From positions 964,030 through 1,028,029 of the forward strand of contig JBHYGA010000004.1 of the NCBI GenBank assembly GCA_051859245.1: a stretch of 64,000 nt of DNA, read 5' to 3'. Of the stretch, positions 9,263 through 28,996 are shown one piece after another. Position numbers and translations under genes: made by a program. A model generated the notes under the pieces. The model worked only from the letters and a program-made list of their open reading frames with translations, was not told where the DNA came from and did no database searches. Every line of letters begins with the position of its first letter. The first letter of the stretch is position 1. The DNA comes from Gemmatimonadaceae bacterium. GTDB lineage: Bacteria; Gemmatimonadota; Gemmatimonadetes; Gemmatimonadales; Gemmatimonadaceae.

Positions 9263-9268
9263 ATCTTT

Positions 9269-10480: not shown

Positions 10481-13400
10481 TGTCTGAACAGCATGAAGAC
10501 CGCGCTGCCGCTGGCGGCAGCGTTAAAGGTGCGGCGGAGCAGGGCGGTGGACTCAGTGGCGTCGCCATTCGACGCCCGGTGTTCACCACCATGATCATGC
10601 TCGGACTGGTGGTGCTTGGATTGTTCGCGTACCGCGGACTGCCTATCGACCAGTTCCCGGATGTCAGCATTCCCGTGGTATCGGTGCAAACCACGTATCC
10701 GGGTGCCAGCGCCGAAACAGTTGAGCGCGAGGTCACGCGCCGACTGGAAGAAGCGTTCAATCCGGTGCAGGGCGTGAAGAAACTCACGTCCATCTCGCTG
10801 GAAGGTGTGTCGCAGGTGACGGTGGAGTTTGACCTCGGACGTGATGCCGATGCCGCATCGCAGGACCTGCGTTCCAAGATTGAACTCATTCGCCGTGATC
10901 TGCCAACGGATATTGATCCGCCGATTGTGCAGAAGTTCAACTCGTCAGATCTGCCGATCATTTCGCTCGCGCTTCGCTCCAAAACCGTTCCGCTCAGTGA
11001 ACTCACCACGATTGCCGACGAACCACTGCGCCGCCGCATGGAAGCGGTTGCTGGAGTTGGTGAAGTGCGCGTGTCGGGCGGTGTGCGTCGGCAGGTGAAT
11101 GTGTATCTGCAGCCGGAGCGCATGCGCGCACTCGGCATTACCGTGCCCGAAGTCATGGGCGCGTTGCAGCGGCAGAACCTCGAAGTGCCCGCGGGACGTC
11201 TTGAGCGCGGGTTGGCCGAACAACTCGTGCGCGTGACCGGACGTATTGACGACCCGGCGGGCTTTGAGCAGGTGATCATTGCCACCCGTGGTGCGAATCC
11301 CGTTCGCTTGCGCGATGTGGCGCGCGTGGAAGACGGTGTGGAAGAAAAGCGCTCGGTTGCACTCGTGAATGGTGAAGTGGCCGTTGCGCTGGACCTGCTC
11401 AAGGTCTCCGGCGCGAACACAGTGGAAGTGGCCGACGGTGTGACCGAAGCACTCGACGAAGCGCGGGCGCTGCTCCCACAAGGCGCAACGTTGCAGGTCG
11501 TGCGCGACAACTCCACCATGATCCGTCAATCGGTTGATGACGTCATCCATGAGCTGGTGCTTGGCGCGATTCTCACCGTGCTGATCGTGATGTTGTTCCT
11601 GAACGACATCAAGGCCACCGCCATTACGGCACTCGCGCTTCCGGTGTCGGTGATTTCGGCCTTCGTGCTGATGGGCATTCTGGGCTTCACGCTCAACGTT
11701 CTTACGCTGCTGGCCCTGTCGATCTCGATTGGTATCCTAATTGACGACGCGATTGTGGTGGTGGAAAACATTGTGCGTCGTCGGCAGATGGGCGACGACG
11801 TCTTCACTGCCGCACGCGAAGGCACACGCGAAATTGTGCTGGCGGTGTTGGCCACTACACTCTCCATCGTAGCCGTGTTTGTGCCGGTCGCGTTCATGAA
11901 AGGCATCATTGGCCGGTTCTTCTTTGAGTTCGGTCTGACTGTTGCGTGGGCGGTGCTCGTGTCGCTGTTCGTGTCGTTCACACTCACGCCAATGCTCAGC
12001 GCGTGGTGGGGTGTGTCGCCGCATACGGGTGAAGGCGGCAATGTGATCACGCGTAGCATCAGCCGTTTTAATCGCTGGTTCGACCAGCAGGCGCTGCGCT
12101 ATCGCGGACTGCTGCGGTGGGCGCTCGGACACCGTCGCAGCACCGTGTTGATGGCCGTGGTGGCGTTTGTCGGCGCCATGGCACTCTTCCCACTGGTTGG
12201 TGGATCGTTTTCGCCTGACAGCGATGACGGCGAGTTCATTGTAAAGTTTGAAACGCCGCAAGGTGCCAGCTTGCCGTACACGCAGGCCAAGGCCGAGCAG
12301 ATTGATGCGATGCTCACGGCCATGCCGGAAGTGTCGTACGTGTATACCACGGTGGGTGCGGGTGCGATTGGTACGGTTACCACCGGCGAAGCGTATGTGA
12401 AACTCGTGCCGTCCAACGAACGCACGCGTTCGCAGCTTGAGATGATCGCCGTCGCGCGAACCGCCATGCAAGACGTGGCAGGTGTGCAGTCGCAGGTTCT
12501 TTTGAGCGGCGGTCTCGGTGGCCCAGTGGCGCCGCTGCAGGTTGAACTGCGCGGACGTGATCTCGATACCCTCACCATGATTTCGGCGCAGGCGCTGGCC
12601 GCTGTTCGCGCACTCCCTGAAGTTGTGGATTCGCGCACCACACTTGGTGCACCGCGTCCCGAAGTACGCGTTGATCTGGATCGCGATGTCGCCAATCGTG
12701 TCGGACTCGATGTGGGTTCGCTCGCCGCGACAATTCGACCGCTCTTTGCGGGCGAAGTCGCTACACGTTGGGAAGATCCTACGGGTGAAGAGCGTGACGT
12801 GCGCGTGCAGCTCTCGCCCGAGTCGCGCGTATCGCGTACGGATCTGGCGCAGATTCCCGTGCCCACGGCAAGCGGCAATGCAAACGGAATCGCCAGCGTT
12901 CCGCTCGGTGATATTGCGCGACTGGAAGACGGATTTGCGCCGGCCGAAATCCGTCGTCAGGATTTGCAGCGCACGGTGATTGTGGAGGGCAGCCCGGCGC
13001 CAGGCGTGTCCATCTCGGTGGCGTCGGCCAAGCTGAACGAAGCGCTCAACACGCTCACACTTCCCGAGGGCTATCGCTTTCAGCTTGGCGGCGAAACAAA
13101 GGAGCTGGCCGAAACGGGTGGGTACGTGATCGAAGCGATCTTGCTGGCTGTGGTGCTCATCTTCCTGATTCTTGCATCACAGTTTGAGTCGTTCACGCAG
13201 CCAGTGGCGATTATGCTGTCACTGCCATTGTCGTTGATTGGCGTGCTTATCGCGCTGCTGCTGACGGGCGATACGATCAACATCATGTCCATGATTGGCG
13301 TGATCATGCTCTTTGGTCTAGTCACCAAGAACGCGATTCTGCTGGTGGACAACGCCAATGAACGACGACGCGAGGGCATGCCACGATTCGAGGCGCTTAT

Positions 13401-13686
13401 TGAAGCCGGTGCGGTGCGTTTACGTCCGATCATGATGACCACATTGGCCATGATTTTTGGCATGTTGCCGATTGCGCTCGCACTTGGACAGGGCGGCGGT
13501 TTCCGCGCACCAATGGCGCGCGCGGTAATCGGCGGCCTGATCACCAGTACGGCGCTCACACTGCTCGTTGTGCCGGTCGCGTACACGTATCTCGACGACC
13601 TCGGCGCGTGGGTGCTGTCGAAAGTGCGGAGAACCGGACGTCGTGCGAACACCGCTGAAATGCCAGTTCCGGTGGCGGGTGACTAG
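10480..13686 (+). CDS. RND efflux permease (AcrB/HAE1-like)
   Basis: 1068 aa. AIRRPV N-terminus, GILIDDAIVVVENI, KNAILLVD, RLRPIMMT motifs. Confidence 0.96.
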   Translation: MSEQHEDRAAAGGSVKGAAEQGGGLSGVAIRRPVFTTMIMLGLVVLGLFAYRGLPIDQFPDVSIPVVSVQTTYPGASAETVEREVTRRLEEAFNPVQGVKKLTSISLEGVSQVTVEFDLGRDADAASQDLRSKIELIRRDLPTDIDPPIVQKFNSSDLPIISLALRSKTVPLSELTTIADEPLRRRMEAVAGVGEVRVSGGVRRQVNVYLQPERMRALGITVPEVMGALQRQNLEVPAGRLERGLAEQLVRVTGRIDDPAGFEQVIIATRGANPVRLRDVARVEDGVEEKRSVALVNGEVAVALDLLKVSGANTVEVADGVTEALDEARALLPQGATLQVVRDNSTMIRQSVDDVIHELVLGAILTVLIVMLFLNDIKATAITALALPVSVISAFVLMGILGFTLNVLTLLALSISIGILIDDAIVVVENIVRRRQMGDDVFTAAREGTREIVLAVLATTLSIVAVFVPVAFMKGIIGRFFFEFGLTVAWAVLVSLFVSFTLTPMLSAWWGVSPHTGEGGNVITRSISRFNRWFDQQALRYRGLLRWALGHRRSTVLMAVVAFVGAMALFPLVGGSFSPDSDDGEFIVKFETPQGASLPYTQAKAEQIDAMLTAMPEVSYVYTTVGAGAIGTVTTGEAYVKLVPSNERTRSQLEMIAVARTAMQDVAGVQSQVLLSGGLGGPVAPLQVELRGRDLDTLTMISAQALAAVRALPEVVDSRTTLGAPRPEVRVDLDRDVANRVGLDVGSLAATIRPLFAGEVATRWEDPTGEERDVRVQLSPESRVSRTDLAQIPVPTASGNANGIASVPLGDIARLEDGFAPAEIRRQDLQRTVIVEGSPAPGVSISVASAKLNEALNTLTLPEGYRFQLGGETKELAETGGYVIEAILLAVVLIFLILASQFESFTQPVAIMLSLPLSLIGVLIALLLTGDTINIMSMIGVIMLFGLVTKNAILLVDNANERRREGMPRFEALIEAGAVRLRPIMMTTLAMIFGMLPIALALGQGGGFRAPMARAVIGGLITSTALTLLVVPVAYTYLDDLGAWVLSKVRRTGRRANTAEMPVPVAGD

Positions 13687-13777: not shown

Positions 13778-14386
13778 CTACAGATGCCGTGAAGCCCAGA
13801 TGAGGCGCTGCAGGATGCCGACGATCACACCGCCGGTCATGATCCACGCGAGCGTGACGTAGTGGTAGGGGAAGAGCAGGAAGAGTGAAAAGAAGATGAC
13901 CGTTTCGGTGCCGGCCACGAGACCGCGTGGCATCGTGACCGTGGTGAGTTCACCACGCGAAGTTGCGCCGGCGCCGCGCCGTTCAAGAATCGCCGAGAGG
14001 TACATCCACGACGCGGCGTTCACGAACCATGAGGCGAGCAGTACACTGCTGGCGAGCCAGCTGCTTCGCGTATCGAACGCGAGCGCAATACCGAGTGGCA
14101 TCGCGGCGTAGACCACGAAGTCAAGCAAAATGTCGAGATAGCCGCCCATGTCGGTCTGGCGATCATGCAGGCGCGCCACGGTGCCGTCAATACCATCGAG
14201 CAGTCGGTTGGCGATCCACAGTATGAGCGCGAATCGCCACGTCGCCTGGCTGGCCGCGACCGCTGCGCCGATACCGACCACGAGCGCGAGCAGGGTGATG
14301 GCCAAGGGTGAGCACCACGTACCCAGCCACTGCGCGAGTGGTGCGAGCCAGCGTTCTTTTCGAATGCGAAACCATTCGTCAAACAT
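13778..14386 (-). CDS. CDP-alcohol phosphatidyltransferase family protein (YnjF-like)
   Basis: Signature DGIDGTVAR-x8-GGYLDILLD. GLVAGTET segment resembles YnjF-type members. Confidence 0.9.
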   Translation of the reverse strand: MFDEWFRIRKERWLAPLAQWLGTWCSPLAITLLALVVGIGAAVAASQATWRFALILWIANRLLDGIDGTVARLHDRQTDMGGYLDILLDFVVYAAMPLGIALAFDTRSSWLASSVLLASWFVNAASWMYLSAILERRGAGATSRGELTTVTMPRGLVAGTETVIFFSLFLLFPYHYVTLAWIMTGGVIVGILQRLIWASRHL

Positions 14387-14395
14387 TGTGGCGTC

Positions 14396-15508
14396 TCACG
14401 CAGGAAATAGGATCATGCCACGTACGTCGATGCACACAGTAACCTGTGAGCCGGTGGCCGGCACAGACATGGGGTCGATGAGCGCGTGGACCACGGCGTG
14501 AGGCAATTGGACCGCTGCCGTCGCGCTTCCTGCCCGGTGATTAATGCTGAGTACGCGGCCATCAGCGAGCGTGTGAATGTGCGGAGTGTCGCTGGCGCGG
14601 GTGTGATTCGCGGTTGACTCGCAACGTATGGCGTCGCTCCGAATGCCAAGCACAACGCGCTGCTGGTTTGCGTAGCCGGCGCTGCTCCGCGTGGGCAGCG
14701 CGCCCAGCACCGTGTCAATGCTGCTGTCGGATTCGCGAACCACTCCCTCAAACTCCTGATGCAATCCCAGAAAGCGCATCACGCCAACTGACGCTGGCGA
14801 TGCGAACAGCTCCAGCGCGGTTCCCACCTGCGCGATGGTGCGATCGAGCATGATCGCCATGCGATCGCCAAGCGACGTCGCATCATCGAGATCGTGGGTC
14901 ACGAGCAGCAGGCCGGCATCGCTCTCGGCGTGCGCCTCACGGATTGCGTCGCGCACATCACGTCGCAATACCGGATCGAGCGCCGAGAGTGGTTCGTCAA
15001 GCAGCAATACATGTGGCCTGGCGGCAAGTGCACGAGCCAGTGCCACGCGATGTTTCTGTCCACCGCTCAGTGTCTGTGGCGAGCGTTTGGCTAGCTCACC
15101 AAGGTGTAAACGTTCGAGCAGCGCCCGCACCACGCGCTCACGCTCCGCAGACGCCATGCCACGAATGGTGAGCGGAAACGCAACGTTGTCCTCTACGCTG
15201 AGGTGCGGAAAGAGCACCGGCGTTTGATGCAGATACACCGTACCGCGCGAGTGCGCGGCGACATCGGAGACGTCAATATTGCCAACGCGAATGTGTCCTG
15301 CGCTGATGGGCGTCAGGCCCGCAATCGCTCGCAGCAACGATGTCTTTCCCTCACCGGATGGCCCGAGTAACACCACGCGTTCACCACATGCCAAGCGCAA
15401 ACTGATGTCGTGCAGTCCGTGCGTGCGTGCCGCGTCACCGCGAGTATCGGGAGACGCAAACGGCACAGCCACTGCTTCAACGGAAAGCGCGTTGCCAGTG
15501 GGCGTCAT
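14396..15508 (-). CDS. ABC transporter ATP-binding protein
   Basis: Walker A GPSGEGKT, signature LSGGQ, Walker B LLLDEP, H-loop VTHD, TOBE-like C-terminus. Confidence 0.95.
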   Translation of the reverse strand: MTPTGNALSVEAVAVPFASPDTRGDAARTHGLHDISLRLACGERVVLLGPSGEGKTSLLRAIAGLTPISAGHIRVGNIDVSDVAAHSRGTVYLHQTPVLFPHLSVEDNVAFPLTIRGMASAERERVVRALLERLHLGELAKRSPQTLSGGQKHRVALARALAARPHVLLLDEPLSALDPVLRRDVRDAIREAHAESDAGLLLVTHDLDDATSLGDRMAIMLDRTIAQVGTALELFASPASVGVMRFLGLHQEFEGVVRESDSSIDTVLGALPTRSSAGYANQQRVVLGIRSDAIRCESTANHTRASDTPHIHTLADGRVLSINHRAGSATAAVQLPHAVVHALIDPMSVPATGSQVTVCIDVRGMILFPA

Positions 15509-16323
15509 GTTGCAAGTGCGTCAGTGCGTCGCGCGCCAAGGCGCAAGGCGGCCAGTGCGGCAATCGCCGGTACAATGAGCAACAGGGCGCCTACAGCCGC
15601 CGGTCGATCCTGCCCGGCACGAACAAGCGTCAGTACTTCAATTGGCAACGTGCGCAGCGCTCCTCCGCCAACCACAAGCGTCAGTGCGACCTGCGTCCAC
15701 GAGATGAGAAAGGCAATCGCAAGTGCTTCGGCAATTGGTGCACGCAGCGACGGGACAATTACGCGTGTCCATGTGTTCCACGCCGACGCGCCGAGCGTAC
15801 GCGCTGCTTCTTCTGGTTCCGAGCCGCGGGTAGTAAACACGCCAAGAAAGAGCAGAGACACGTAGCCCACAGCGGGAACGGTGTGCGAAAGCCACACGCC
15901 AACCGACGTGCCCGCTATTCCCAGCCACAGTGTCAGAATCTGCAGACCCGCACCAAGTGCAATCGGCGGCGCTGCGACCGGAAGAAACACGAGCGCCGCG
16001 GCAACATGTCGCCAGCCACCGCGCAAACGGGCGAGTGATCGCCCAACAGGCAACGCGACCGCAACCGCAGCAACGGCGGTCGCCAGGCCCAACGCGACGC
16101 TCGTTACCGCGGCGCCTCCGAGCGAGCCGCTAACCACCGCACGCCATGACGATCCCGTAAAGCCAGACGGCAGGAGCGCGGGCCACCGCCAGCTCTCGCT
16201 GAATGATTGCACGAGCAGAATCGCAAACGGCAGGAACGTTGAAATGGCCAGTGCGGCAATCGCGACAACGCGCCATGGCGATGTGTCAGCTTTTGCATGC
16301 GCAATCTGCACAGGCGCCGTCAT
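15505..16323 (-). CDS. ABC transporter permease (YnjC C-half-like)
   Basis: About six TM helices, EAA loop EEAARTLGAS, WRWPALLP motif. Confidence 0.9.
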   Translation of the reverse strand: MTAPVQIAHAKADTSPWRVVAIAALAISTFLPFAILLVQSFSESWRWPALLPSGFTGSSWRAVVSGSLGGAAVTSVALGLATAVAAVAVALPVGRSLARLRGGWRHVAAALVFLPVAAPPIALGAGLQILTLWLGIAGTSVGVWLSHTVPAVGYVSLLFLGVFTTRGSEPEEAARTLGASAWNTWTRVIVPSLRAPIAEALAIAFLISWTQVALTLVVGGGALRTLPIEVLTLVRAGQDRPAAVGALLLIVPAIAALAALRLGARRTDALAT

Positions 16324-17174
16324 TTAACGAGTGAACCCCAACGCGCGCGTGCGACTTCGTGCGCGGCCACGGCAATCGCGGCCACGCCGAGTGCAACCAA
16401 CGCGAGTCCGTACGCTTCTCCGCGGCGCGAAAGCTGCGGGTCGGCGAAACGCTCCATGGTGAGTACCGGAAGCGGGGCCGGATCAATCGGGGCCAACAGC
16501 ACCGCCGACTCAAAGCTTCCGAATGCAAACACAAACGTTGCGATCACTGCCGGAAACAAGCCGCGCCACAACAACGGCCAGGTGATGGTGCGCGCCACAA
16601 CGCTCGGCGTTGCTCCAAGCGTGCGGGCTGCGTCTTCCAGATCGCGAGCAATGCCCGCGCGAAGGGCGATGGCTACAACGGCGAGAAAGGGTAGTTCCTT
16701 CCACGCAAGCGAAAGAATCAGCGCGACACCGCCTGAATCGTACACAAGCGCGGGCATGTTCGCGGGTGCGTCAATCACGCCGGCGCCGTGCAGTGCCCGG
16801 GCCAGCAACCCACTTTGACTGAGCACAAAAAGTGCGGTGGCCGCCGCGACAAGGTGGGGCACAGGAAGCGGCAGTGTGGCCAGCGATCGAGCCACACGAT
16901 CGCTTCGTGAGTGTGACGGAAAGAGCAGGGCAATGGCGACTGCAGCAGCGGCCGCAATCACGGTGCTGGTACACGCCACATAAAGCGACCAGGAAGTTGC
17001 GCGCCACGTGGTGCGATCGCCGAGCACGAAGAACAGGCGATCGGCATCGGCCACGGACGAGGCTCCGGCACCGGTGAGTCCGAGTACCGCGAGCGCGGAG
17101 TAGGCCACGCCGAAAAGCACCGGCGCGGCCACAAGCATCGCGATCAATAACGGAAAAGGCACACGCCGAGGCAT
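16320..17174 (-). CDS. ABC transporter permease (YnjC N-half-like)
   Basis: TM helices, EAA loop EDAARTLGAT, WKELPF motif. Confidence 0.9.
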   Translation of the reverse strand: MPRRVPFPLLIAMLVAAPVLFGVAYSALAVLGLTGAGASSVADADRLFFVLGDRTTWRATSWSLYVACTSTVIAAAAAVAIALLFPSHSRSDRVARSLATLPLPVPHLVAAATALFVLSQSGLLARALHGAGVIDAPANMPALVYDSGGVALILSLAWKELPFLAVVAIALRAGIARDLEDAARTLGATPSVVARTITWPLLWRGLFPAVIATFVFAFGSFESAVLLAPIDPAPLPVLTMERFADPQLSRRGEAYGLALVALGVAAIAVAAHEVARARWGSLVK

Positions 17175-17199
17175 GTCCGAAGTTACGCCATGGGCGACA

Positions 17200-18447
17200 C
17201 TACGGCTCGCGAGGCGATGCTCCGGCGCGCGCCCAGTCTCGCCAATCCGCGTTCAGTCGCTCGTGATAACGCGGCGACACCTCAGGAACGGCGTATCGGC
17301 GCAGTGTGTCCCGAGGGATCGCGCGCGGATCCGCCTCGGCGTTCGCAAAACGTGAGCGCCACGGCTCAGGGACCGTGCGAACATTCAGCACCGTGCCATC
17401 TGCCCACACCTCGGGCTTTTGTTTCTCAAATTGCGCTTCGGCAGACAGGAGCAGGTTTGCGACCACCATCGCGCCGGCCGGATTGGGCGCATTCAAGGGA
17501 ATGCCCACGAAATGTGAGTTCGCAATGGTGCCGTCGCGCAATACCAGTGCACGAGCTGTACTCGGCAGTACCCCCTGGCGAATCTTGTTGACCACGTCGT
17601 GTTGATTGTTCGACATGGAAAAATCGATCTCTGAGTTCGCGAACAGGCGATGCATGGCCGCGACATCCGGCGGATACGTGCTGCCGTTTCGCCAGAAGCT
17701 GCTGCGCAACGAGTCGAGCCACGCAAACACCACCTGTCGACCAAGGTCGTAGCGCTCATCGGTGAACCCATTGGCGAACGCGCTTGCGCCTCCACCGCGG
17801 GCGTACATCAGCATCTTGAGAAACGTGATGCCGGAGAATCCTTGATCGTGTGTGAACCGGCCTGGATTCGATCGAATCCAGGCTGAGAGTTCGTCGAATG
17901 ACCGCGGCGGATTGGGTGTGCGTACGGTGTCGTAAATCAGCGCAAACTGCACCGAGCCCCACGGACTCTCAAAGCCGGCTGGGTCCTGCTCAAAGTCGCG
18001 TGCAATGATGGGCGACGCAGAGTCGATGAACGCGGCGTTCGGCAACACGCCCGCCCACGGCCCTGCCAGCAGCGACTCCGCGCGCAGATTGGAGAATGTC
18101 TCACCGTTGATCCACACGAGGCTCGCGGTGCCGCGTCCACGTCCCGCTTCGCGCTCGAGCACCAGCTGATTCACGATCTCCGGTCCTTGTCCCTCAACCG
18201 CTTCAAGGGTGATGCCGTACATCGTGCGCAAACGCGGGGCGAGCCAACCGTCAACGTAGGCGTTGATGGCCGGATCGCCTCGCCACTTGCGCCATGTCAC
18301 GGTCGTGCCGCGCGCGCGTGCTTCCACGCTGTCCCACGGCAGTGCGGTGAGTTGCGCAACTTCGGTCTGTGCCGATTGCTCTGCAGCGTCACCCGCGCAC
18401 GCCACGAGACACGTGGCGAGAAGAACGGATCGCAACACAGGGAACAT
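17200..18447 (-). CDS. ABC substrate-binding lipoprotein (YnjB-like)
   Basis: ATG 18447 gives a lipoprotein signal (LLATCLVAC). ARGTTVTW..WRG, LVWINGETF and FSGITFLK motifs resemble YnjB. Confidence 0.85.
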   Translation of the reverse strand: MFPVLRSVLLATCLVACAGDAAEQSAQTEVAQLTALPWDSVEARARGTTVTWRKWRGDPAINAYVDGWLAPRLRTMYGITLEAVEGQGPEIVNQLVLEREAGRGRGTASLVWINGETFSNLRAESLLAGPWAGVLPNAAFIDSASPIIARDFEQDPAGFESPWGSVQFALIYDTVRTPNPPRSFDELSAWIRSNPGRFTHDQGFSGITFLKMLMYARGGGASAFANGFTDERYDLGRQVVFAWLDSLRSSFWRNGSTYPPDVAAMHRLFANSEIDFSMSNNQHDVVNKIRQGVLPSTARALVLRDGTIANSHFVGIPLNAPNPAGAMVVANLLLSAEAQFEKQKPEVWADGTVLNVRTVPEPWRSRFANAEADPRAIPRDTLRRYAVPEVSPRYHERLNADWRDWARAGASPREP

Positions 18448-18488
18448 CGGAACGCATGATCGCTTACTCAACAACGTGCGCACGCGCC

Positions 18489-21311
18489 TCAGAACAACCA
18501 ACGTGCTGAGAACTGCAGCTGACGCGGCGGTGCGACGGCTGAAGTGACAATCGGATCACCGGGGCGTCCCACCTGCGTGCGCGTACCGCCGCCAGGCAAT
18601 CCATTGGCGTATCCACCAGCGTTGGTGCTGTTGAACAAGTTGAACGCGTCGGCACGCAGCTCAATGCCCTGATTTCTCACGCGCAGTTCGTACGATACAC
18701 TCGCGCTGGTAAACAGCGCACTCGGCAGCCGCTCACCGTTGCGCGACACGCCAAAGAAACGATCCTGGTTGCCGAGAAATCCGTTGCCGAACGTATCACC
18801 AGAACCATCAAGATCGCGGAAGAATGCGATGCGATTAATCGGCTGACCCGTCTGCCAATCCGCTACACCAGAGAGTGACAGCCGCCGGAATCCGGTGTAC
18901 GTGGCGCGCATGGCAATGCGATGACGGCGATCGTTGATCGCGTCGGCCCACTCGGCATCAAAGTTGTTGCCCTGTGTGGCGTTAAAGTTGATGTCTTCGG
19001 TGTTTGTGCGCGCGCGTGACCAGATCCAGTTTGCATCAATGAGCCACGCGTCGTCAGCGGCCCAGCGAGCGGTCGTGTACAAACCGGCGTATGTGGAGCG
19101 CCCACCACTCTCGGTGGTGGTGCGACGGCGGAAACCACCGTTTACCGGCGCCACTGGTCGGAATGCGTCGCCGGTGGCGACGGACAGGCTGATCGTGTCT
19201 GCGGGTCCGATGCCGCGCGTGCTGGCATTCAGATCCCACGAACGCGGCAGGTTGCGCGTATCGACGTACACAGCGTCCATGCCAATCGCGACTCGTGTGC
19301 CGATCTGCTGTTGCCAACCGCCGGTAAACTGGCGGCTCATCGGCTGCTCAAGTCCGAGCGCAAACAGCTCGCGCACTTCGCCCGGTGGCAACTGACTGCG
19401 ATCAAGTGTCGCCGTGCGCGGGCCCTGCAGATACGCCGGCGCGTTCGCACCGTCAAACGTGACCGTTTGATTGCCATCGGGTCCGAACTGAATGGCGTCG
19501 GAGTACACGGCGTACGGAAACTTGCCGGCGTACAAACCAGCGCCCGCGCGAAGGACGGACGACGGACCAACGAGCCAGTTGACGGAGGCGCGGGGTTGCC
19601 AGTTGTTCAGATCAGGCGAACTCTGTCCACGCGATGTGAGGTCGTCGTAGTCCCAACGCACGCCAAGTGTGAGCGTGAGGGCGGGCGACAGACGCCACGC
19701 GTCTTCAATGAACGCTCCAACAAGTGTTTGCGACAAGTCGACCTGTTTCTGTGCGGCGTCTACGGTGTAGCTGAGCACGCGTACGTTCTGCGGCACGTCG
19801 GCAAATGCGAACCGATTGCCGCGCTGCGGAATATTGCCTTCGTCAAGTACCACATAGGAGCCGGACGGATTCGTTTGCGAGCCGGCGAGTCTGAAGTTCG
19901 AGCGCCAGCCATCGCCGCCAATTCGCAACTGATGTTTGTCGCCGATGAACGTTTCAAACACGTTGCGCAACTGCAGCTGCGTTTCGGATTCGTCAAACAC
20001 GAAGTTACTTGAACCCACCACGCCGACCGACACGGTATCAATGCCTTGTACGCGACGAATCGTGACCTGGGGAATCGAAAAACTGCTCTGCGCCGGCGGA
20101 AAATTCCATCGGAACGAACCAAGTTGCGCCGCGAACACGTTGCTGGCGCGCCCGTTGCGCAAGGCTGATCGATGCAACAACGCAGTGACCGTGCCAATGC
20201 GCTGCGTGACGATGTCCGCCTCAGGCGCAACAATGCCGCTGCCTCGACCTTCGCGATCAATCCGACTGGCCGCAATACGCAACGTGGTGGTCTGATTGGG
20301 CGACCAGCCATGATCCACACGCCCGAACGCCTTCACCGTGCCACGCACCTCTCGGCCAGTAAACGTAGTGTTCGCGGTTGATGCAATGCGATCTTCGTTC
20401 TCGTTGGTGTATTCGATGGCTCCAAACACAAATGTTTGATCGGCGCGAAGCGGACCGCCGCCGGCCGCACCAATCTGTGAGCGACGGAATCCTTCCTGCG
20501 CGCGACGGAAGTCTTCCGGATTCTGGCCTGCCGGTACAATCGCGGAGCGCGCATCGACCGGTAATCCCGGGCGATTGTACACAAACGCCTCACCCTGCCA
20601 CGTCGAACCACCCGAGCGTGTTTCCATATTCACCACGCCGTTCGAACTCCGCCCGAACTCCGCGCCGTACGTGTTGGCCAGCACGCCAAAGCGCTGCAGT
20701 GCGGACAGTGGCACTTCCACGCGTGCGCCGCCGAGAAAGCCTTCGTTGTTCTCAAGTCCGTCGAGCGAGTACTGCGTGTACAACGCGTTCGCACCATTGA
20801 TGGACAGGCGCGGTGCGTCGCCGAAGAATCCGGTCGCGGTGGAAACGCCAGGAATGGTGTACGCGAGCGCGATGGGATCACGCGAGTCGGTCGGCAGTCG
20901 CTCCAGCTCAGTGCGCTCCACTGTGCCGCCAGTAGTTGCGTTTTCGGTGTTCAGCAGCGGGCGTGGCAACGGGGCCACCACAGACACAACACCCAGCGAA
21001 GCAAGGGGGCGAAGTGTGAGTGCGATGACCCGTGCATTGGCCTTGTTGGATGCGTCAATGCGAACCGAGTCTGGCAGAAAGCCGAGCGCGCGCACCACAA
21101 CGAAGCCTGCGGATGTATTCGCAACGGCGAGTGCAAAACGACCGGCTGAGTCAGACGTTGCTGCTTCAGTCAGCATCGTAATCTGCGCGCCGCGTATAGG
21201 CAGTCCTGCTGCCGAACGCACGACGCCTGTGACAGCGCCGGTGGTTTGCGCAGAGAGAATGAACGGCGCGCACAGCGCGGCCACGAACAGTGCACACTTT
21301 GGCAACATCAT
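18489..21311 (-). CDS. TonB-dependent receptor with N-terminal carboxypeptidase-regulatory-like domain
   Basis: Signal peptide, GAVTGVVRSAAG domain, plug motif YGAEFGRSSNGVVNMETRSGG, beta-barrel ending PRQLQFSARWLF. Confidence 0.9.
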   Translation of the reverse strand: MMLPKCALFVAALCAPFILSAQTTGAVTGVVRSAAGLPIRGAQITMLTEAATSDSAGRFALAVANTSAGFVVVRALGFLPDSVRIDASNKANARVIALTLRPLASLGVVSVVAPLPRPLLNTENATTGGTVERTELERLPTDSRDPIALAYTIPGVSTATGFFGDAPRLSINGANALYTQYSLDGLENNEGFLGGARVEVPLSALQRFGVLANTYGAEFGRSSNGVVNMETRSGGSTWQGEAFVYNRPGLPVDARSAIVPAGQNPEDFRRAQEGFRRSQIGAAGGGPLRADQTFVFGAIEYTNENEDRIASTANTTFTGREVRGTVKAFGRVDHGWSPNQTTTLRIAASRIDREGRGSGIVAPEADIVTQRIGTVTALLHRSALRNGRASNVFAAQLGSFRWNFPPAQSSFSIPQVTIRRVQGIDTVSVGVVGSSNFVFDESETQLQLRNVFETFIGDKHQLRIGGDGWRSNFRLAGSQTNPSGSYVVLDEGNIPQRGNRFAFADVPQNVRVLSYTVDAAQKQVDLSQTLVGAFIEDAWRLSPALTLTLGVRWDYDDLTSRGQSSPDLNNWQPRASVNWLVGPSSVLRAGAGLYAGKFPYAVYSDAIQFGPDGNQTVTFDGANAPAYLQGPRTATLDRSQLPPGEVRELFALGLEQPMSRQFTGGWQQQIGTRVAIGMDAVYVDTRNLPRSWDLNASTRGIGPADTISLSVATGDAFRPVAPVNGGFRRRTTTESGGRSTYAGLYTTARWAADDAWLIDANWIWSRARTNTEDINFNATQGNNFDAEWADAINDRRHRIAMRATYTGFRRLSLSGVADWQTGQPINRIAFFRDLDGSGDTFGNGFLGNQDRFFGVSRNGERLPSALFTSASVSYELRVRNQGIELRADAFNLFNSTNAGGYANGLPGGGTRTQVGRPGDPIVTSAVAPPRQLQFSARWLF

Positions 21312-21414
21312 GATGGAGGCGTTCGGAATGGTTCCGCGGCACAGCGTACCGCTGGATCAAAGACAACGGCGTGGTGGATGTACGATCCAAAGGCTGAGCC
21401 CGGATCTCCCGCGG

Positions 21415-21696
21415 TCAGCTACCCTCGTAGCCTTCCGCGCGCAGCCTGGCCAGTACGCCATCGCGTGCGGCGGCCGCGCTGTCGGGTGTATCGCGCACCT
21501 GAGCCAGTGCGTCAATCACAATCTGTCCAAAGTTTGCGTGCGGAAAGCAATGAGAGCAGCGAGCCACATGCGCGCGCACTGCCGCTTCATTTGCGGTATC
21601 GAGGTGGCCGTCCAGATAGTCCCACAGCATGCGGACGGCGGTTCCGCAATCGAGTGACGGCGTGTCGAGCGCGGCGTGATCAGTATTCGAAATCAT
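21415..21696 (-). CDS. Zinc-finger (zf-HC2/ZAS) anti-sigma factor
   Basis: 93 aa, soluble. LDC...LWDYLDGHL...HVARCSHC (HxxxCxxC). ATGA overlap with the sigma stop. Confidence 0.9.
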   Translation of the reverse strand: MISNTDHAALDTPSLDCGTAVRMLWDYLDGHLDTANEAAVRAHVARCSHCFPHANFGQIVIDALAQVRDTPDSAAAARDGVLARLRAEGYEGS

Positions 21697-22271
21697 GTGG
21701 ACTCCTCCTCAGCGTGTACCGGCACAATGCCGGCTTCTCGCGCGTGTTCAAGCAACGCCGTTTGCAGCAGACGGCGCGCACGGAACAGTCTTGAGCGCAC
21801 CGTACCAACGGGAATGTCGAGCACTGTAGCCGCCTCGGCGTACGGCAGCTCCTGCAGCTCTACCAGTTCGACAACTTCGCGGAACGCTTCGGGCAAGGCC
21901 GCGATGGCGAGATTGATGGCCGGACGAAGGTCGGCATCACTGAGGCGCTGCAGCACATCGTCCGGTGCACCGAGCGAGTAGTTGTCGTCGGCCAGCGCCT
22001 GCAAAGTATCATCTTCTACCGGCACAAGACGCGCGTCTCGCGGCGCCCGTTTCCGCCACGCATTGCGCGCAATCGTGAACAACCACGCCCGCGCCTCACT
22101 GCCCTGTCTGAACGACTCCCAGTGTCGCCAGGCGCGCAAATACGTCTCCTGCACAAGATCTTCCGCGTCGGACTCATCGCGCGTGAGTGAGCGCGCGAAT
22201 CGTGTTACGTCGGGAAGCCAACGCAGTGCGATGTCGTGAAAGGCGATGTGTTTGTCAACCGGTATTTCCAC
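21693..22271 (-). CDS. ECF sigma factor (SigH/SigR-like)
   Basis: DAEDLVQETYLRAW...AWLFTIARN and region 4 YAEAATVLDIPVGTVRSRLFRAR. Confidence 0.93.
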   Translation of the reverse strand: MEIPVDKHIAFHDIALRWLPDVTRFARSLTRDESDAEDLVQETYLRAWRHWESFRQGSEARAWLFTIARNAWRKRAPRDARLVPVEDDTLQALADDNYSLGAPDDVLQRLSDADLRPAINLAIAALPEAFREVVELVELQELPYAEAATVLDIPVGTVRSRLFRARRLLQTALLEHAREAGIVPVHAEEEST

Positions 22272-23004
22272 GCCGTACCCTTTGCACCAATGATGGTAAG
22301 AACGACAACGCGAGCAGCAGTACAGACGCGATAATCAAGTTGGTGCGCGCCGTAGCCGACGCGCCACTCACGCCGCCCACGAGACTGCCCGCGAAATACG
22401 TATAAATGATCGTGCCCGGCAAAATTCCCAATCCGGTCGCCGCGATGTACGGACGGATCGGGATACCCGACAGCGCGGCGGTAAAGCTCAACGCATTGAA
22501 CGGAATCACGGGCAACAGGCGCAGCCGAAACAGCGTGCTGAATCCACGTTTACCAGCCAGCAGGTCGAGTCTGGCAGCCTGGCCACCGAGCAGTTTCCGC
22601 AACGCGTCCCCACCCAACGTTCGTGCGAGCAGGTAGGTGCCAGTGGCCCCGATCGTGGCGCCCAGCCAGTTCAGTCCCGAGCCGAGCGCCGTGCCAAACA
22701 GAATGCCACCGGCAAGGGTGAACGGGGTCGCCGGTAAGCCAAACGTCGCCACCACGATGTACACCAGCACAAAGACCACGTGGATGTACGGGATCTCGCG
22801 CGCTCGCTCGATCGCCGCGAGCAACGCCGCCGGATCTCGTAGATCGAGCAGACCGGCGCGTGAGGCTGCGTAGCCGGCCGCCGCGAGTACCAGCGCGAGT
22901 ATGCCGAGGCGCACGAACGCGGATGAGCGCGAGGATTTCGCGGGTGCTGCCTGCGCTGCACCCGCAGCGTCATCACGTTGCATCTCGCTCACCGTGTCAC
23001 TCAT
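22255..23004 (-). CDS. TVP38/TMEM64 (SNARE-associated, DedA superfamily; YdjX/YdjZ-like) membrane protein
   Basis: LPATPFTLAGGILFG, RLLPVIPFNALSF, ATGLGILPGT motifs. Confidence 0.9.
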   Translation of the reverse strand: MSDTVSEMQRDDAAGAAQAAPAKSSRSSAFVRLGILALVLAAAGYAASRAGLLDLRDPAALLAAIERAREIPYIHVVFVLVYIVVATFGLPATPFTLAGGILFGTALGSGLNWLGATIGATGTYLLARTLGGDALRKLLGGQAARLDLLAGKRGFSTLFRLRLLPVIPFNALSFTAALSGIPIRPYIAATGLGILPGTIIYTYFAGSLVGGVSGASATARTNLIIASVLLLALSFLPSLVQRVRRGNTG

Positions 23005-24533
23005 GTGGTCGCCCGAAAGAACGCCGCGAACACACGTTTGGCGGTCGGTGTGAGTCGGCCTCGATTGTACTGATCAGCAGCGCGACCAAAGATCGCGGCG
23101 CGCGTTGGATACGGGCGGATGGTTCCGCCGAACGAACGCAACCCATCACCGCGCTTCATGGCGCTCACCACCTCGCCGATCATGTCACCGGCACCTTCGC
23201 ACACGAGCGTGGCGCCCAGAATCTGATCGGTTCCACGCGCGAGATGCACGCGAAAAAATCCTTCGGTATCGCCTTCGAGGATGGCACGATCATTGTCGTG
23301 CATGGGCATCGTGATGGTGTCAAACGCCGTGCCCGCACGTTCAAGCGCGTCGCTGGTTTTTCCAACGTGCGCCACTTCAGGTGAGGTGTACGTCGTCCAT
23401 GGAATGATCAACGAGGATGCCTTGCCGCCACCCAACCCAAAGAAGAGCGCGTTCGGCACCGCGAGTCGCGCTTGCGCATCGGCGGCGTGCGTAAACTGGA
23501 ACGAAGAGGACACATCACCAATCGCAAACACACTCGCGTTGGTGGTGCGAAATTTTTCGTCAACGGTTACGCCAGTTTTGGAGAACTGCACACCAGCGGC
23601 GTCAAGACCGAGACCATCGGTGTTTGGCGTGCGACCTGCAGCGACCAGCAACGCGTCCACCGTAATTGCAATGCGCTGTCCGTCGCGTGTGGCTTGCACC
23701 GTTGTGACGTCGCCCTGGCGCTCCACCTGAGAGATCGTGACGCCATGGTGAAATACCACACCATCGCGCGCGAGCGACGCCTCCACCACACGGGCGGCAT
23801 CCGCGTCATCGCGCGGCATCGCGCGCGCATCGGCGTTGAGCACGGTGACGGTGCTACCGAACCGTGCAAACGACTGCGCGAGCTCGAGACCAATTGGCCC
23901 GGCACCAATGATGGCCAGTCGCTCCGGCCGTTCGGTGAGCGAAAAGACGGTCTCGTTGGTGAGCGGTCTGGCTTCAGCAAGACCAGAAATAGGTGGCAGC
24001 GCTGCGCGGGCGCCCGTCGCAATGATGGCGCGTCGAAAACGCAGCGTTTGCCCAGCAACTTCGATAGCATTACGTCCGGTAAACGTTGCGTCACCGAGGA
24101 ACACATCCACACCGAGCGAAGCAAACCGCGGCGCACCGTCCACTGGTGCAATGCCGGCGCGCAGCCTGCGCAATCGCTCCATCACAGCGCCAAAATCGCC
24201 GTCGCCGACTGCTGCCGGTCCGCCAAACTCGGCCTGCGCCGAACGCGCCTGATGCCACGCACGCGATGCGCGCAGCACGGCCTTCGATGGAACACACCCC
24301 ACATTGAGGCAATCGCCACCGAGCAGATGACGCTCGATCAGCGCCACACGTGCGCCGAGTCCGGCGGCAATCGCGGCGCTGACCAGCCCCGCCGTTCCGC
24401 CACCGATCACCACCAGTTGATACCGGTCGGCGGCGGTGGGATTCTGCCACGACGGCGGATGGACGTGCGAAATGAGTGCACGATTGTGCACGTCATCGGG
24501 AAGCATGAGGGGGGTGTCGGCCATGTGTGTCAT
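23001..24533 (-). CDS. Mercuric-reductase-like FAD/NAD(P) disulfide oxidoreductase
   Basis: GGGTAG FAD motif, GGDCLNVGCVPSK redox disulfide, GAGPIGLE NAD motif. No NmerA domain or C-terminal Cys-Cys. Confidence 0.9.
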   Translation of the reverse strand: MTHMADTPLMLPDDVHNRALISHVHPPSWQNPTAADRYQLVVIGGGTAGLVSAAIAAGLGARVALIERHLLGGDCLNVGCVPSKAVLRASRAWHQARSAQAEFGGPAAVGDGDFGAVMERLRRLRAGIAPVDGAPRFASLGVDVFLGDATFTGRNAIEVAGQTLRFRRAIIATGARAALPPISGLAEARPLTNETVFSLTERPERLAIIGAGPIGLELAQSFARFGSTVTVLNADARAMPRDDADAARVVEASLARDGVVFHHGVTISQVERQGDVTTVQATRDGQRIAITVDALLVAAGRTPNTDGLGLDAAGVQFSKTGVTVDEKFRTTNASVFAIGDVSSSFQFTHAADAQARLAVPNALFFGLGGGKASSLIIPWTTYTSPEVAHVGKTSDALERAGTAFDTITMPMHDNDRAILEGDTEGFFRVHLARGTDQILGATLVCEGAGDMIGEVVSAMKRGDGLRSFGGTIRPYPTRAAIFGRAADQYNRGRLTPTAKRVFAAFFRATT

Positions 24534-24587
24534 ACGCTCAGACGTAGTGTGACGGATGCCTGAGAGTTCCCTGCGGCGTCCGATGCG

Positions 24588-25199
24588 TCAATCCACGCGT
24601 GGTTCGGACTGTCGCCAGCGATACACATCTTCCGGCGTATCCAGATCCATCGCCCCGCCCGGAAGTGGCACGGCGGTCTCGTTACCGCGCAGCAGCGAAC
24701 GCGCACCGCGATCTCCCTTGAGTGACGCGAGCAACGGCCATTCGCTCCGCGGCCAGATGGCCGGAATGCCACAGACATCATCGTACTTGGACACCACGCG
24801 TCCACCATGGTTCGCATGCGCATCCAGCAGCGCGCGCACATGTGCAACATCAACGGACGGTTGGTCGCAGGTGAGCAGCATCATGGCGGTGGCAGCGCTC
24901 GGTTCGACCACCTGCAGACCCACGCGAATGGATCCCGACATGCCCTCGGCCCATTCGGCGTTCTCTGCGTAGGTAACAGATGCGCTATCGTGCAGCGCAT
25001 CACGAAGCACCTCGCGCACACTCTCCGCATACGCGCCGAGTACGACGACCACTGGCGCGCATCCACCAGCGATTGCATCACGCACCAGTCGGACCAGCAA
25101 CGCCTCACCACTGGCATCCCGCAACAGTTGCTTGGCCGATCCCATCCGACGAGACGCACCAGCCGCCAGCAGCACCGCCGCCACGGAGCGAGTGCTCAC
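24588..25199 (-). CDS. MocA/YgfJ-like nucleotidyltransferase (molybdenum cofactor cytidylyltransferase family)
   Basis: LLAAGASRRMGSAKQLL, GMSGSI, GDRGAR, DLDTPED. GTG 25199 directly follows the XdhC stop; track start 25604 overlaps XdhC. Confidence 0.88.
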   Translation of the reverse strand: MSTRSVAAVLLAAGASRRMGSAKQLLRDASGEALLVRLVRDAIAGGCAPVVVVLGAYAESVREVLRDALHDSASVTYAENAEWAEGMSGSIRVGLQVVEPSAATAMMLLTCDQPSVDVAHVRALLDAHANHGGRVVSKYDDVCGIPAIWPRSEWPLLASLKGDRGARSLLRGNETAVPLPGGAMDLDTPEDVYRWRQSEPRVD

Positions 25200-25200
25200 G

Positions 25201-26403
25201 CTATCGACGCTCGCGCGGAGCAACCGTTGGCGTGGCGCAGGTCGCGTTGGTCTGTTCGCTGGCCAACTTTGGTGTGTCGGTGCGTGTGTGCAGCGGCGCC
25301 TGACGCTCGCGTAGCGAACCACCCGGTCGCGACTGCAACACTGCTTGCATCTCTGCAATCGCGGCCAGCGCCACCTCGTCTGGTGACTCACCGCCGATGT
25401 CGAGTCCGATCGGTGCAAAGAGACGCGCCCGATCACGCGCGCGCATCGCCGGCTTTGCGTCGAGCAATGAGCGCACCAAACGACCCGCGCGCTGACGTGA
25501 GCCCAACACACCCACGTATGGTGAGTCGGTGGCCAATGCAGCCTGCAGCCACGCCAGATCGGCCTCGAAGCGGTGGGTACAGAGCGCGAACATCGTGCGC
25601 GCATCGACCGGACACAAGTGCGCCTTCATCGCATCCGACGCGTTCTCTGGCGTAATGTGCACGAGCTGAACAGCGCCTGGCAGCGCGAGTTCATTAAGGA
25701 GTGCGGTGCGATCGTCAATTACGGTCACACGCCAGCCGGTGGCGACCGCGATCCGGGCAAACGATTCCGCACCGCGTGACGCACCAACCACGATGACATG
25801 CACCGGTGGTCGTACCGGTGCGCCAAACGTTCGCTCGAGTCCGCTCGACGTGGTTTGTTGTCCGAGATACGGTTGATCCGTATGTCGCACCGTATCCTGC
25901 ACACGTGCATTCGTTTCTGATCGTAGTGCCAATGCTGGCGCTGCGTCGCGAACAAACACGGTTCGGCCAATGCATGAAGCGTCCGCAGACTCGATCGTGG
26001 TGAGCAACACACCACTTTGTCGCAACTCGGCGCTGCTGCACGCCGCTTCGAGTTCGCGCAGGTCTGGGAGCGGCGCAAGCATGATATGCGCGACGCCTTC
26101 ACAGCCGGAGCCAAAACCCCAGATGGTTTCGAGATCTTCGCGCAGATCGTACGCCATGAGTGAGGCTTCACCACGCGCGCACACCGCAGTGGCGCGCAGG
26201 GCCACATCGCCTTCAAGGCAGCCACCGCTGATCGCGCCGGCGAGCACGCGCCCCTCTGCGTCGCACAGCATGCGCGCACCGGGCTGGCGATATGACGATC
26301 CGTCAACCGCCACCAGCGTGGCGAGCGCCAGTGGTACGCCCGGACGCGAAACAACCGCTGAGCGCGCCGCTGTAATCAGCGCGACGAGTTCGGTGTGCGT
26401 CAC
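25201..26403 (-). CDS. XdhC/CoxI family molybdoenzyme maturation factor
   Basis: GSSYRQPGARM, ISGGCLE, GSGCEG, YVGVLGS, APIGLDIGGESPDEVAL. Confidence 0.92.
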   Translation of the reverse strand: MTHTELVALITAARSAVVSRPGVPLALATLVAVDGSSYRQPGARMLCDAEGRVLAGAISGGCLEGDVALRATAVCARGEASLMAYDLREDLETIWGFGSGCEGVAHIMLAPLPDLRELEAACSSAELRQSGVLLTTIESADASCIGRTVFVRDAAPALALRSETNARVQDTVRHTDQPYLGQQTTSSGLERTFGAPVRPPVHVIVVGASRGAESFARIAVATGWRVTVIDDRTALLNELALPGAVQLVHITPENASDAMKAHLCPVDARTMFALCTHRFEADLAWLQAALATDSPYVGVLGSRQRAGRLVRSLLDAKPAMRARDRARLFAPIGLDIGGESPDEVALAAIAEMQAVLQSRPGGSLRERQAPLHTRTDTPKLASEQTNATCATPTVAPRERR

Positions 26404-26406
26404 GAG

Positions 26407-28899: not shown

Positions 28900-28996
28900 G
28901 TGAGGGGCTCCAGAGGTGGGGGCAGCAGGTCTACCCATGAAGCCTACAGCATCTCGACGCCGACGTCACGCCCGTGAGAGTGATTATCTTCAAGGG

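Follow-up and report, generated by a model that had tools for sequence, protein, structure and literature searches.

A conserved modular uptake system of Gemmatimonadota with a TonB-dependent receptor, interchangeable carriers, and a YnjF-type enzyme

The window analyzed here, 64,000 nucleotides (nt) of a Gemmatimonadaceae bacterium genome (assembly GCA_051859245.1, contig JBHYGA010000004.1, positions 964,030 to 1,028,029 of the forward strand), contains ten co-oriented open reading frames (ORFs), all on the minus strand, at positions 13778-24533. They encode a TonB-dependent outer-membrane receptor of a distinct family, an ATP-binding cassette (ABC) importer similar to YnjBCD of Escherichia coli, a YnjF-type cytidine diphosphate (CDP)-alcohol phosphotransferase, a PRK06370-type flavoprotein disulfide reductase, a TVP38 membrane protein, an extracytoplasmic function (ECF) sigma factor, and a zinc-binding anti-sigma factor (ZAS). 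The receptor, an inner-membrane carrier, and YnjF form the core of a conserved modular uptake system. Its likely function is to import a solute and join it to a lipid. A riboside is the favored type of cargo, and an arsenosugar is the best single candidate, a tentative one.

CONSERVATION OF THE CORE

Two samples were compared. The first comprises 58 related loci, found with the receptor as the query among the best 80 of 132 stretches; being picked by similarity, they are not independent. The second is one sample of 301 Gemmatimonadota genomes, the phylum to which the named relatives belong. In the 58 loci, which are the closest relatives, the gene after the receptor encodes the binding protein wherever 300 nt or more of downstream sequence is available (52 of 52), and 31 of the 33 loci that extend at least 5.2 kb downstream contain YnjF. 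At the genome level, the receptor is found in 20 of the 301 genomes, YnjF in 19 (above 190 bits, with the next ten matches at 91 bits or less), and YnjB above its cut-off in 11. The YnjF-containing genomes are exactly the receptor-containing ones minus G169, whose receptor stops at a contig end, and no receptor-negative genome encodes YnjF. The linkage of the receptor/ECF half to the ABC/phosphatidyltransferase half, proposed in an earlier sequence-only reading of the window, is therefore strongly supported: the two halves stay linked in relatives, with YnjF in 19 of the 20 receptor genomes.

The remaining genes are accessory and not part of this core. Where 4 kb or more of upstream sequence is available (33 loci), the reductase is found in 25, TVP38 in 23, an ECF gene in 18 (some of these unrelated), and ZAS in 16, and the full ten-gene set is present in only 10 of the 58 loci. 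The earlier picture of one linked unit thus holds for the receptor, carrier, and YnjF, which stay together, but not for ECF/ZAS, the reductase, and TVP38. Recurrent additional neighbors include genes for DUF547, fatty-acid hydroxylase, DUF3047, rhodanese, AhpD-like, FMN reductase, AhpC, DsbD, and Msr proteins.

The carrier itself is interchangeable. ABC genes adjoin the receptor in 10 receptor genomes; in one of these, G288, YnjF is located elsewhere, together with the reductase, TVP38, DUF547, and ECF/ZAS. In 9 receptor genomes, the ABC importer is replaced by a sodium:solute symporter (SSF), accompanied by a divergent YnjF (32-38%) and often by a TVP38-DUF547 fusion, the reductase, and ECF/ZAS. 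In Sphingopyxis FD7 and in the metagenome loci L170 and L242, it is replaced by a CNT nucleoside transporter. Because three unrelated inner-membrane carriers swap while the receptor and YnjF stay, import followed by lipidation, as envisaged in the earlier reading, gains support from gene context.

Similar gene sets occur in six phyla. Plasmid records were opened for 8 of the 75 with YnjB, 4 of the 56 with YnjF, and 4 of the 53 with arsS. YnjF is adjacent in seven of the ten YnjB regions viewed, and TVP38 plus the reductase in six; these regions come from Metabacillus, Ilyobacter, Pseudoalteromonas, Catenovulum, Pseudooceanicola, other Rhodobacterales, and a Salmonella plasmid copy cut by IS26. 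In Bacillota, Fusobacteriota, and Proteobacteria, where the regulators differ, the TVP38-reductase pair adjoins ynj genes, and in proteobacteria TVP38 is also found fused to the reductase. Plasmids encode only two homologues of the receptor, in Chondrinema (31% identity; gene order DUF2064-receptor-YnjBCD-radical SAM) and Sphingopyxis FD7 (36%; receptor-CNT nucleoside transporter-YnjF-AhpD, with ECF and a TVP38/reductase fusion upstream). The receptors of Pseudoalteromonas and Catenovulum show no detectable similarity to that of the window. A counter-example to the linkage is Deinococcus, where YnjBCD is found with an acyltransferase and without YnjF.

A neighborhood of unrelated units (two or more) brought together by chance would fit the 103-nt gap before the receptor and the shifting or missing ECF/ZAS, reductase, and TVP38 genes of many loci. 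It would leave unexplained why the receptor and YnjF are otherwise never apart among the 301 genomes and why the same gene set recurs across phyla. For the core it is already contradicted, and overall it is very improbable.

The Salmonella copy, an observation of separate interest, is an ynj-type cluster on the IncC plasmid NZ_MH760469.1 (L138), among conjugative enterobacterial plasmids. It is interrupted by IS26 and located beside an integron, with DUF6789-DUF2282-DUF692-DoxX genes upstream, and is adjoined by a gene for TIGR03169 (N-term-of-SelD oxidoreductase).

THE YnjF FAMILY

YnjF (positions 13778-14386, minus strand; PF01066, CDP-OH_P_transf) retains the complete CDP-alcohol phosphotransferase signature, D64xxD67G68xxA71R72...G81xxxD85xxxD89. 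Residues D64, D67, G68, R72, G81, D85, and D89 are found in all 39 aligned members of the family and A71 in 38, so that the motif noted earlier as intact is indeed so. The family also has a distinct GxxE[GT]ET motif. In profile searches, the closest proteins of solved structure are the DIPP synthase AfDIPPS (top match; E value, 2.5e-15) and the PIP synthases (E value, 1e-14). In PIP synthases, two arginines are reported to bind the phosphate of the acceptor (PMC4634129). The column of one of these, R155 of MtPIPS, contains Thr in 37 of the 39 YnjF sequences and Arg in none. Replacement of this phosphate-binding arginine suggests that the YnjF acceptor is likely unphosphorylated.

Neither DUF2064 nor CDP-glycerol cytidylyltransferase (TIGR01518) is found above cut-off in any of five importer genomes, that of the window included. 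The lack of these enzymes makes CDP-diacylglycerol the likely donor. The top match to AfDIPPS, together with the location of the L242 YnjF gene directly before a gene for a TIGR04282-like protein of the nucleotidyltransferase fold, might instead indicate that the riboside is joined to a soluble CDP-alcohol, in the manner of DIPP synthase, to give a water-soluble phosphodiester such as a phosphate arsenosugar. The equally good scores of the PIP synthases, the lack of DUF2064 and TIGR01518 in all five genomes, and the recurrence of lipid-related neighbors (TVP38, sterol desaturase, and acyltransferase) make such a product quite improbable.

DISTANT RECEPTORS AND THE RIBOSIDE CLUE

The more distant members of the receptor family were sampled as the best 80 of 526 confirmed metagenome stretches, which form 70 clusters at 90%. 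DUF2064 is encoded in 53 of these 80 loci and a YnjB-like protein in 38. Riboside-handling proteins are encoded in 19 loci in all: MTAP/PNP-like proteins in 9, MtnK-like kinases in 14, nucleoside hydrolases in 7, and CNT transporters in 2. Pfam matches to DUF2064, IU_nuc_hydro, PNP_UDP_1, and CNT are above the respective cut-offs. An orphan radical SAM protein is encoded in 25 loci, only one of which belongs to the 19, making the two groups nearly exclusive.

This gene context suggests that the receptor family imports a nucleoside-like 5-substituted riboside, whose next step would be lipidation, cleavage with phosphorylation, or the action of the radical SAM enzyme. We regard a riboside as the more credible kind of cargo. 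The sulfur-, selenium-, or arsenic-containing sugars and polyols that had been listed earlier as speculative candidates can be narrowed accordingly to a 5-substituted riboside, with arsenic as the best candidate for the substituent.

The orphan radical SAM family, about 315 residues long, is encoded downstream of receptor-YnjBCD genes in Bacteroidota-like loci (L131:15520-16467, L233:17193-18140, and 24 more) and is nearly exclusive with the riboside-cleaving genes; an Atlas search returned unnamed clusters only. Paired proteins of about 210 residues with no Pfam match follow YnjB-type ABC genes in 8 of the 80 metagenome loci (for example, L184:13116-13745, L192:9065-9712, and L017:15641-16973) and in the genome G265. 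An Atlas search with the 215-residue neighbor protein likewise gave unnamed clusters only, the nearest named one being ThuA-like.

SHARED GENES WITH ARSENOSUGAR LOCI

Arsenic is suggested by the DUF2064, ArsM-like, and TIGR04282-like genes of the distant receptor loci and by the accessory genes. The product of ArsS is reported to be 5'-deoxy-5'-dimethylarsinoyladenosine (PMC13598754; bioRxiv 2024.02.01.577332; PMC12159101), and the NCBIfam names of TIGR04167 (ArsS), TIGR04169, TIGR04282, and TIGR04283 assign these families to arsenosugar biosynthesis. The reductase is found above cut-off in 15 of the 20 receptor genomes and 17 of the 27 arsS genomes, compared to 21 of the 255 others; 13 of those 21 were examined, and in 6 of them radical SAM-ArsM genes adjoin the reductase. 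In Pseudanabaena and Acinetobacter, the TVP38-reductase pair is located within arsS/arsM operons, which in Acinetobacter also contain DUF547, MTAP, and sterol desaturase genes, and DUF547 or a sterol desaturase flanks arsS in two further cases. In a quick tree, importer-linked, arsenic-linked, and stand-alone reductases form one clade (SH 99), in which the arsenic-linked ones nest among the importer-linked ones twice; four rows labeled as importer-linked are other reductases of those loci and fall outside it. The source genome shares this accessory set: TVP38 and the reductase are in the window, and DUF547 is encoded elsewhere behind the same promoter motif. Outside the window, this genome encodes one ArsM-like, two DUF547, and one DUF3047 protein.

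The possibility that the source genome makes its own arsenosugar was rejected, since no co-occurrence of the importer with arsS was seen at the genome level.

Several related gene arrangements were seen. A DUF547 gene followed by one for a radical SAM protein of about 460 to 480 residues, with weak Tes/TrsS matches, is found in L279 (G000:C1:143649-145945), L062, L068, L139, and L151, and this pair recurs beside the reductase or the receptor in relatives. A radical SAM-SPASM-like domain is fused to an ArsM-like methyltransferase in L153:6660-9251, L154:5705-8185, L280, L282, and L283; these fusions cluster with TIGR04282/TIGR04283, TVP38, reductase, and DUF547 genes in genomes without a TIGR04167 match, and might represent an ArsS-independent organoarsenic pathway. 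At G114:C5:176510-178012, a reductase match contains one in-frame TGA, possibly a selenocysteine codon or the sign of a broken gene; a script search of the ORF as called gave no CxxxxC.

PREDICTED ECF PROMOTER

A motif, GGAAC-N16-G[AT]CT[TA], was first seen by eye in the upstream regions of relatives. It precedes 54 of 345 module genes (a list drawn up after the loci had been viewed), compared to none of 258 internal genes and 3 of 467 others. In 79 loci, it is specific for the spacer, with 65 matches at 16 nt versus 5-10 at 13-15 and 17-19 nt, and its density is 54 per Mb in the loci versus 3 per Mb in the genome. The window contains a weak variant at positions 24545-24570 (minus strand), 12 nt before the first ATG of the reductase gene. 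This copy alone is not above chance (0.66 expected; position weight matrix score of 11.5, versus a training minimum of 14), and relatives carry the canonical form at the same position. Of 30 loci, 5 have the motif in front of the ECF gene. The encoded ECF sigma factor may read the GGAAC-N16-G[AT]CT promoter. Thiol/redox control, as proposed earlier, gains support from this conserved ECF-type promoter, while its reading by the encoded sigma factor is the conjectural part.

In the source genome, 5 of 14 motif matches are located upstream of genes, the three strongest before a gene for a 178-residue protein, msrA-msrB, and DUF547-DUF2911. The 178-residue protein, behind the strongest copy (L276:741-1277; G000:C4:572740-573276), looks secreted and has no Pfam match.

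The same motif precedes AhpC, TlpA, DsbD, and FMN reductase genes in related loci. This breadth, with msrAB included, would suit an importer of an ordinary polyol, amino-alcohol, or sugar, with YnjF making a minor phospholipid and the reductase, TVP38, and DUF547 being thiol-stress genes that share an ECF promoter, not a substrate. Further points on that side are the stand-alone occurrence of many reductase and TVP38 genes, the similarity of the binding-protein fold to AfuA and PotD, and the absence of arsS from importer loci. An ordinary solute would leave unexplained, however, both the CNT carrier, the nucleoside hydrolase, phosphorylase, and kinase, and the DUF2064 neighbors of the receptor family and the presence of TVP38-reductase next to ynj genes in three other phyla under other regulators. 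We consider it unlikely.

PROPOSED FUNCTION

In the favored mechanism, the TonB receptor would capture and the carrier import a riboside of the oxo-arsenosugar-glycerol type, and YnjF would join a hydroxyl of the imported riboside to CDP-diacylglycerol, giving an arsenosugar phospholipid in one step. More speculatively, the head group might be cycled from As=O to As(III) by the reductase, TVP38 might move the lipid across the membrane, ECF/ZAS might switch the unit on together with msrAB under thiol or oxidant stress, and the lipid might act as a recyclable membrane antioxidant. Two assumptions are built in: that the receptor and the binding protein carry the same cargo and that the heteroatom of the cargo is arsenic. 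The specific proposal, that the unit imports a scarce 5-substituted riboside, most likely the dimethylarsinoyl riboside of glycerol, and joins its free hydroxyl to CDP-diacylglycerol to form an arsenosugar phospholipid, remains tentative, somewhat short of evenly balanced.

A number of observations weigh against it. The column of R195 of MtPIPS, the second phosphate-binding arginine, does contain Arg in 38 of the 39 YnjF sequences. The fold of the binding protein yields no ligand clue in the fold search. By profile and tblastn searches, the source genome has no arsS (TIGR04167), TIGR04282, TIGR04283, or TIGR04169, nor PF09837. The receptor and arsS co-occur in 1 of the 301 genomes, with about 2 expected by chance, and YnjF is found in none of the 27 arsS genomes. 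Of 20 arsS loci of the phylum, 3 have an adjacent TVP38, 2 the reductase, 2 DUF547, and none YnjF. The co-occurrences singled out earlier for mapping, with DUF547, rhodaneses, ArsM/ArsS, and TIGR04282/TIGR04283, were found in part: DUF547 and rhodanese recur, and ArsM-like and TIGR04282-like proteins are encoded in 4 of the 80 distant receptor loci each (by BLAST labels), but arsS and TIGR04283 in none. The MTRK, MTAP, ArsM, TIGR04282, and NupC matches in these loci are all below the NCBIfam cut-offs, and one Cys of what we take to be the usual ArsM motif is apparently missing from the ArsM-like proteins. With YnjF in only 2 of the 80, the riboside-enzyme loci are mostly without it, and the riboside cargo is extrapolated from receptors that share only 28-36% identity with that of the window. 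The reductase and TVP38 often stand alone, in many cases as reductase-TVP38 pairs, and Sinorhizobium has a lone YnjF. In E. coli, the ydjXYZ-ynjABCD genes are listed as FNR-activated (PMC3688515); its keeping ynjBCD and ynjF under FNR would suit a commoner substrate and anaerobic control.

The same import and lipidation might instead act on an analogue with sulfur or selenium, or on a riboside modified differently at position 5 (derivatives of methylthioribose, methylthioadenosine [MTA], or 5-deoxyribose); the reductase would then repair an oxidized head group, much as Msr does methionine sulfoxide. The neighbors that resemble MTA salvage enzymes (MTAP and methylthioribose [MTR] kinase), the recurrent rhodaneses, the msrAB genes in the predicted regulon, and the TIGR03169 oxidoreductase beside the Salmonella plasmid copy all fit such a cargo, which would also suit E. 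coli better. The DUF2064/TIGR04282-like and ArsM-like genes and the accessory set shared with arsS point to arsenosugar genes instead, and we know of no phospholipid with a head group of the sulfur- or selenium-riboside type. This alternative, too, appears unlikely.

Arsenosugar phospholipids are described as phosphatidyl esters of a glycerol arsenoriboside and as the main arsenolipids of surface seawater, with acyl-ether forms that suggest a bacterial source (bioRxiv 10.1101/2021.03.22.436501). Searches of the open-access literature brought up no paper that names a transporter for arsenosugars or an enzyme for their lipidation. They likewise brought up no functional study of ynjB or ynjF and no function for the E. 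coli K-12 ynj genes, and nothing on a receptor-YnjBCD-YnjF system was found in PMC12608789, PMC7345539, or bioRxiv 2023.11.02.563126. The arsenosugar proposal would offer a single hypothesis for arsenosugar uptake and lipidation and for ynj function in E. coli, one that specifies the cargo as a riboside and names both the enzyme and the product. In its broadest form, which is rather unlikely, heterotrophic bacteria unable to make arsenosugars would scavenge them through a dedicated TonB receptor, and the phospholipid made by YnjF would be kept in the reduced state by the partner reductase to serve as an antioxidant of the membrane, with an oxidant-stress sigma factor in control. On that reading, YnjF would represent the first arsenosugar-phospholipid synthase, and ynjBCD of E. 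coli would encode an importer of organoarsenic ribosides. Should arsenic prove to be wrong, the receptor family would still mark a hitherto undescribed uptake system for ribosides, with a choice of three carriers and of three routes downstream.

COMPARISON WITH KNOWN SYSTEMS

The closest known counterpart is the ydjXYZ-ynjABCD/ynjE/ynjF region of E. coli, whose ydjXYZ-ynjABCD part is reported to form one transcription unit (PMC3688515) and to be weakly induced by BaeR (PMC2731931). YnjB is 35% and YnjF 36% (over 131 residues) identical to the window proteins, and YdjX/YdjZ (TVP38/DedA) are 37-38% identical. The binding protein, adjacent permeases, ATPase, and YnjF-type enzyme are all present in the window, and AhpD-like and rhodanese genes recur in relatives of the window unit. 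In contrast to the E. coli region, which has neither a TonB receptor nor an ECF gene, as had been stated before, the window adds these two, ZAS, and the PRK06370 reductase; its permease is split, its ynjF is co-oriented, and none of the ten ORFs contains a domain of ydjY, ynjA, or ynjE. The contributions of the window are the match of receptor and YnjF, three carriers that replace one another and of which one is a nucleoside transporter, the residue at the acceptor site, and the promoter.

The arsenosugar gene set (ArsM, ArsS/TIGR04167, TIGR04169, TIGR04282, and TIGR04283) has TVP38, PRK06370 reductase, DUF547, DUF3047, sterol desaturase, rhodanese, and MTAP neighbors in common with the unit. 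The source genome, however, has neither arsS nor the glycosyltransferases, and the window encodes an uptake system, which would consume rather than make the sugar. PIP synthases (MtPIPS and RsPIPS) and DIPP synthase share the class I signature and are the best profile matches; YnjF differs by Thr in place of the phosphate-binding R155/R153, by its own motif, and by its tie to importers. In choline uptake followed by phosphatidylcholine synthase, an alcohol is imported and then added to a lipid in one CDP-diacylglycerol-dependent step. In contrast to such head-group scavenging, the window unit would combine high-affinity uptake across two membranes, a riboside-type cargo, and a dedicated reductase. 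Like MerA, the window reductase is a class I flavoprotein disulfide reductase with a CxxxxC motif. Its assignment as MerA was rejected: it scores 350 bits with the MerA model TIGR02053 (cut-off, 454), has no C-terminal Cys pair, and belongs to a different clade than a true MerA in the quick tree.

ORGANIZATION OF THE PREDICTED OPERON

Pfam and NCBIfam profile searches of every protein confirm the ten family assignments, and the tight junctions described earlier stand. From the 13778 end upward, the gaps are 9, -4, -4, 25, -13, 103, -4, -17, and -4 nt; eight of the nine are below 45 nt, and the widest, 103 nt, separates the anti-sigma and receptor genes. All coordinates below are on the minus strand. 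YnjF is followed upward by a YnjD-like ABC ATPase of PotA/CysA-type length (14396-15508; PF00005), which has no NCBIfam equivalog above cut-off among the 25 matches listed. Two permeases correspond to the C-terminal (15505-16323; PF00528, BPD_transp_1) and N-terminal (16320-17174; PF00528; E value, 1e-5; 25.9, slightly below the Pfam cut-off of 26.4) halves of YnjC. The YnjB-family binding protein (17200-18501; NF008633/PRK11622; 382 bits, cut-off of 203) likely starts at Met19 (18447), which would give a lipoprotein-type signal with a lipobox-like LVAC and change its junction with the receptor from -13 to 41 nt. Its AlphaFold2 model (pLDDT, 95) has a generic cluster-D-type fold that resembles AfuA, PotD, and FbpA (12-18% identity); a PDB sequence search gave no matches.

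The receptor (18489-21311; PF25183/PF00593/Plug) is present in a single copy in the source genome. The anti-sigma factor (21415-21696; PF13490, zf-HC2) contains an HxxxCxxC motif, and its NCBIfam match to the RsrA family is weak and under the cut-off. It is followed by the ECF sigma factor with regions sigma2 and sigma4 (21693-22271; PF04542, PF08281, and TIGR02937), the TVP38/VTT protein of the DedA superfamily (22255-23004; PF09335), and the reductase (23001-24533; NF004991; 671 bits, cut-off of 620), in which CxxxxC is intact and the C-terminal tail looks amphipathic. Scans for sigma-70 promoters and terminators were at or below chance.

Genes for S9 peptidase, XdhC, and MocA-like proteins are located upstream at 24588-28938 in the same orientation, after a 54-nt gap by the longest ORF. 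They were rejected as members of the operon, as they accompany it in the closest relatives only (XdhC in 9 of 33 loci). On the other side, TolC-like, membrane-fusion, and AcrB-family efflux genes (7796-13686, plus strand) converge on the end of the operon, an arrangement found only in near relatives.

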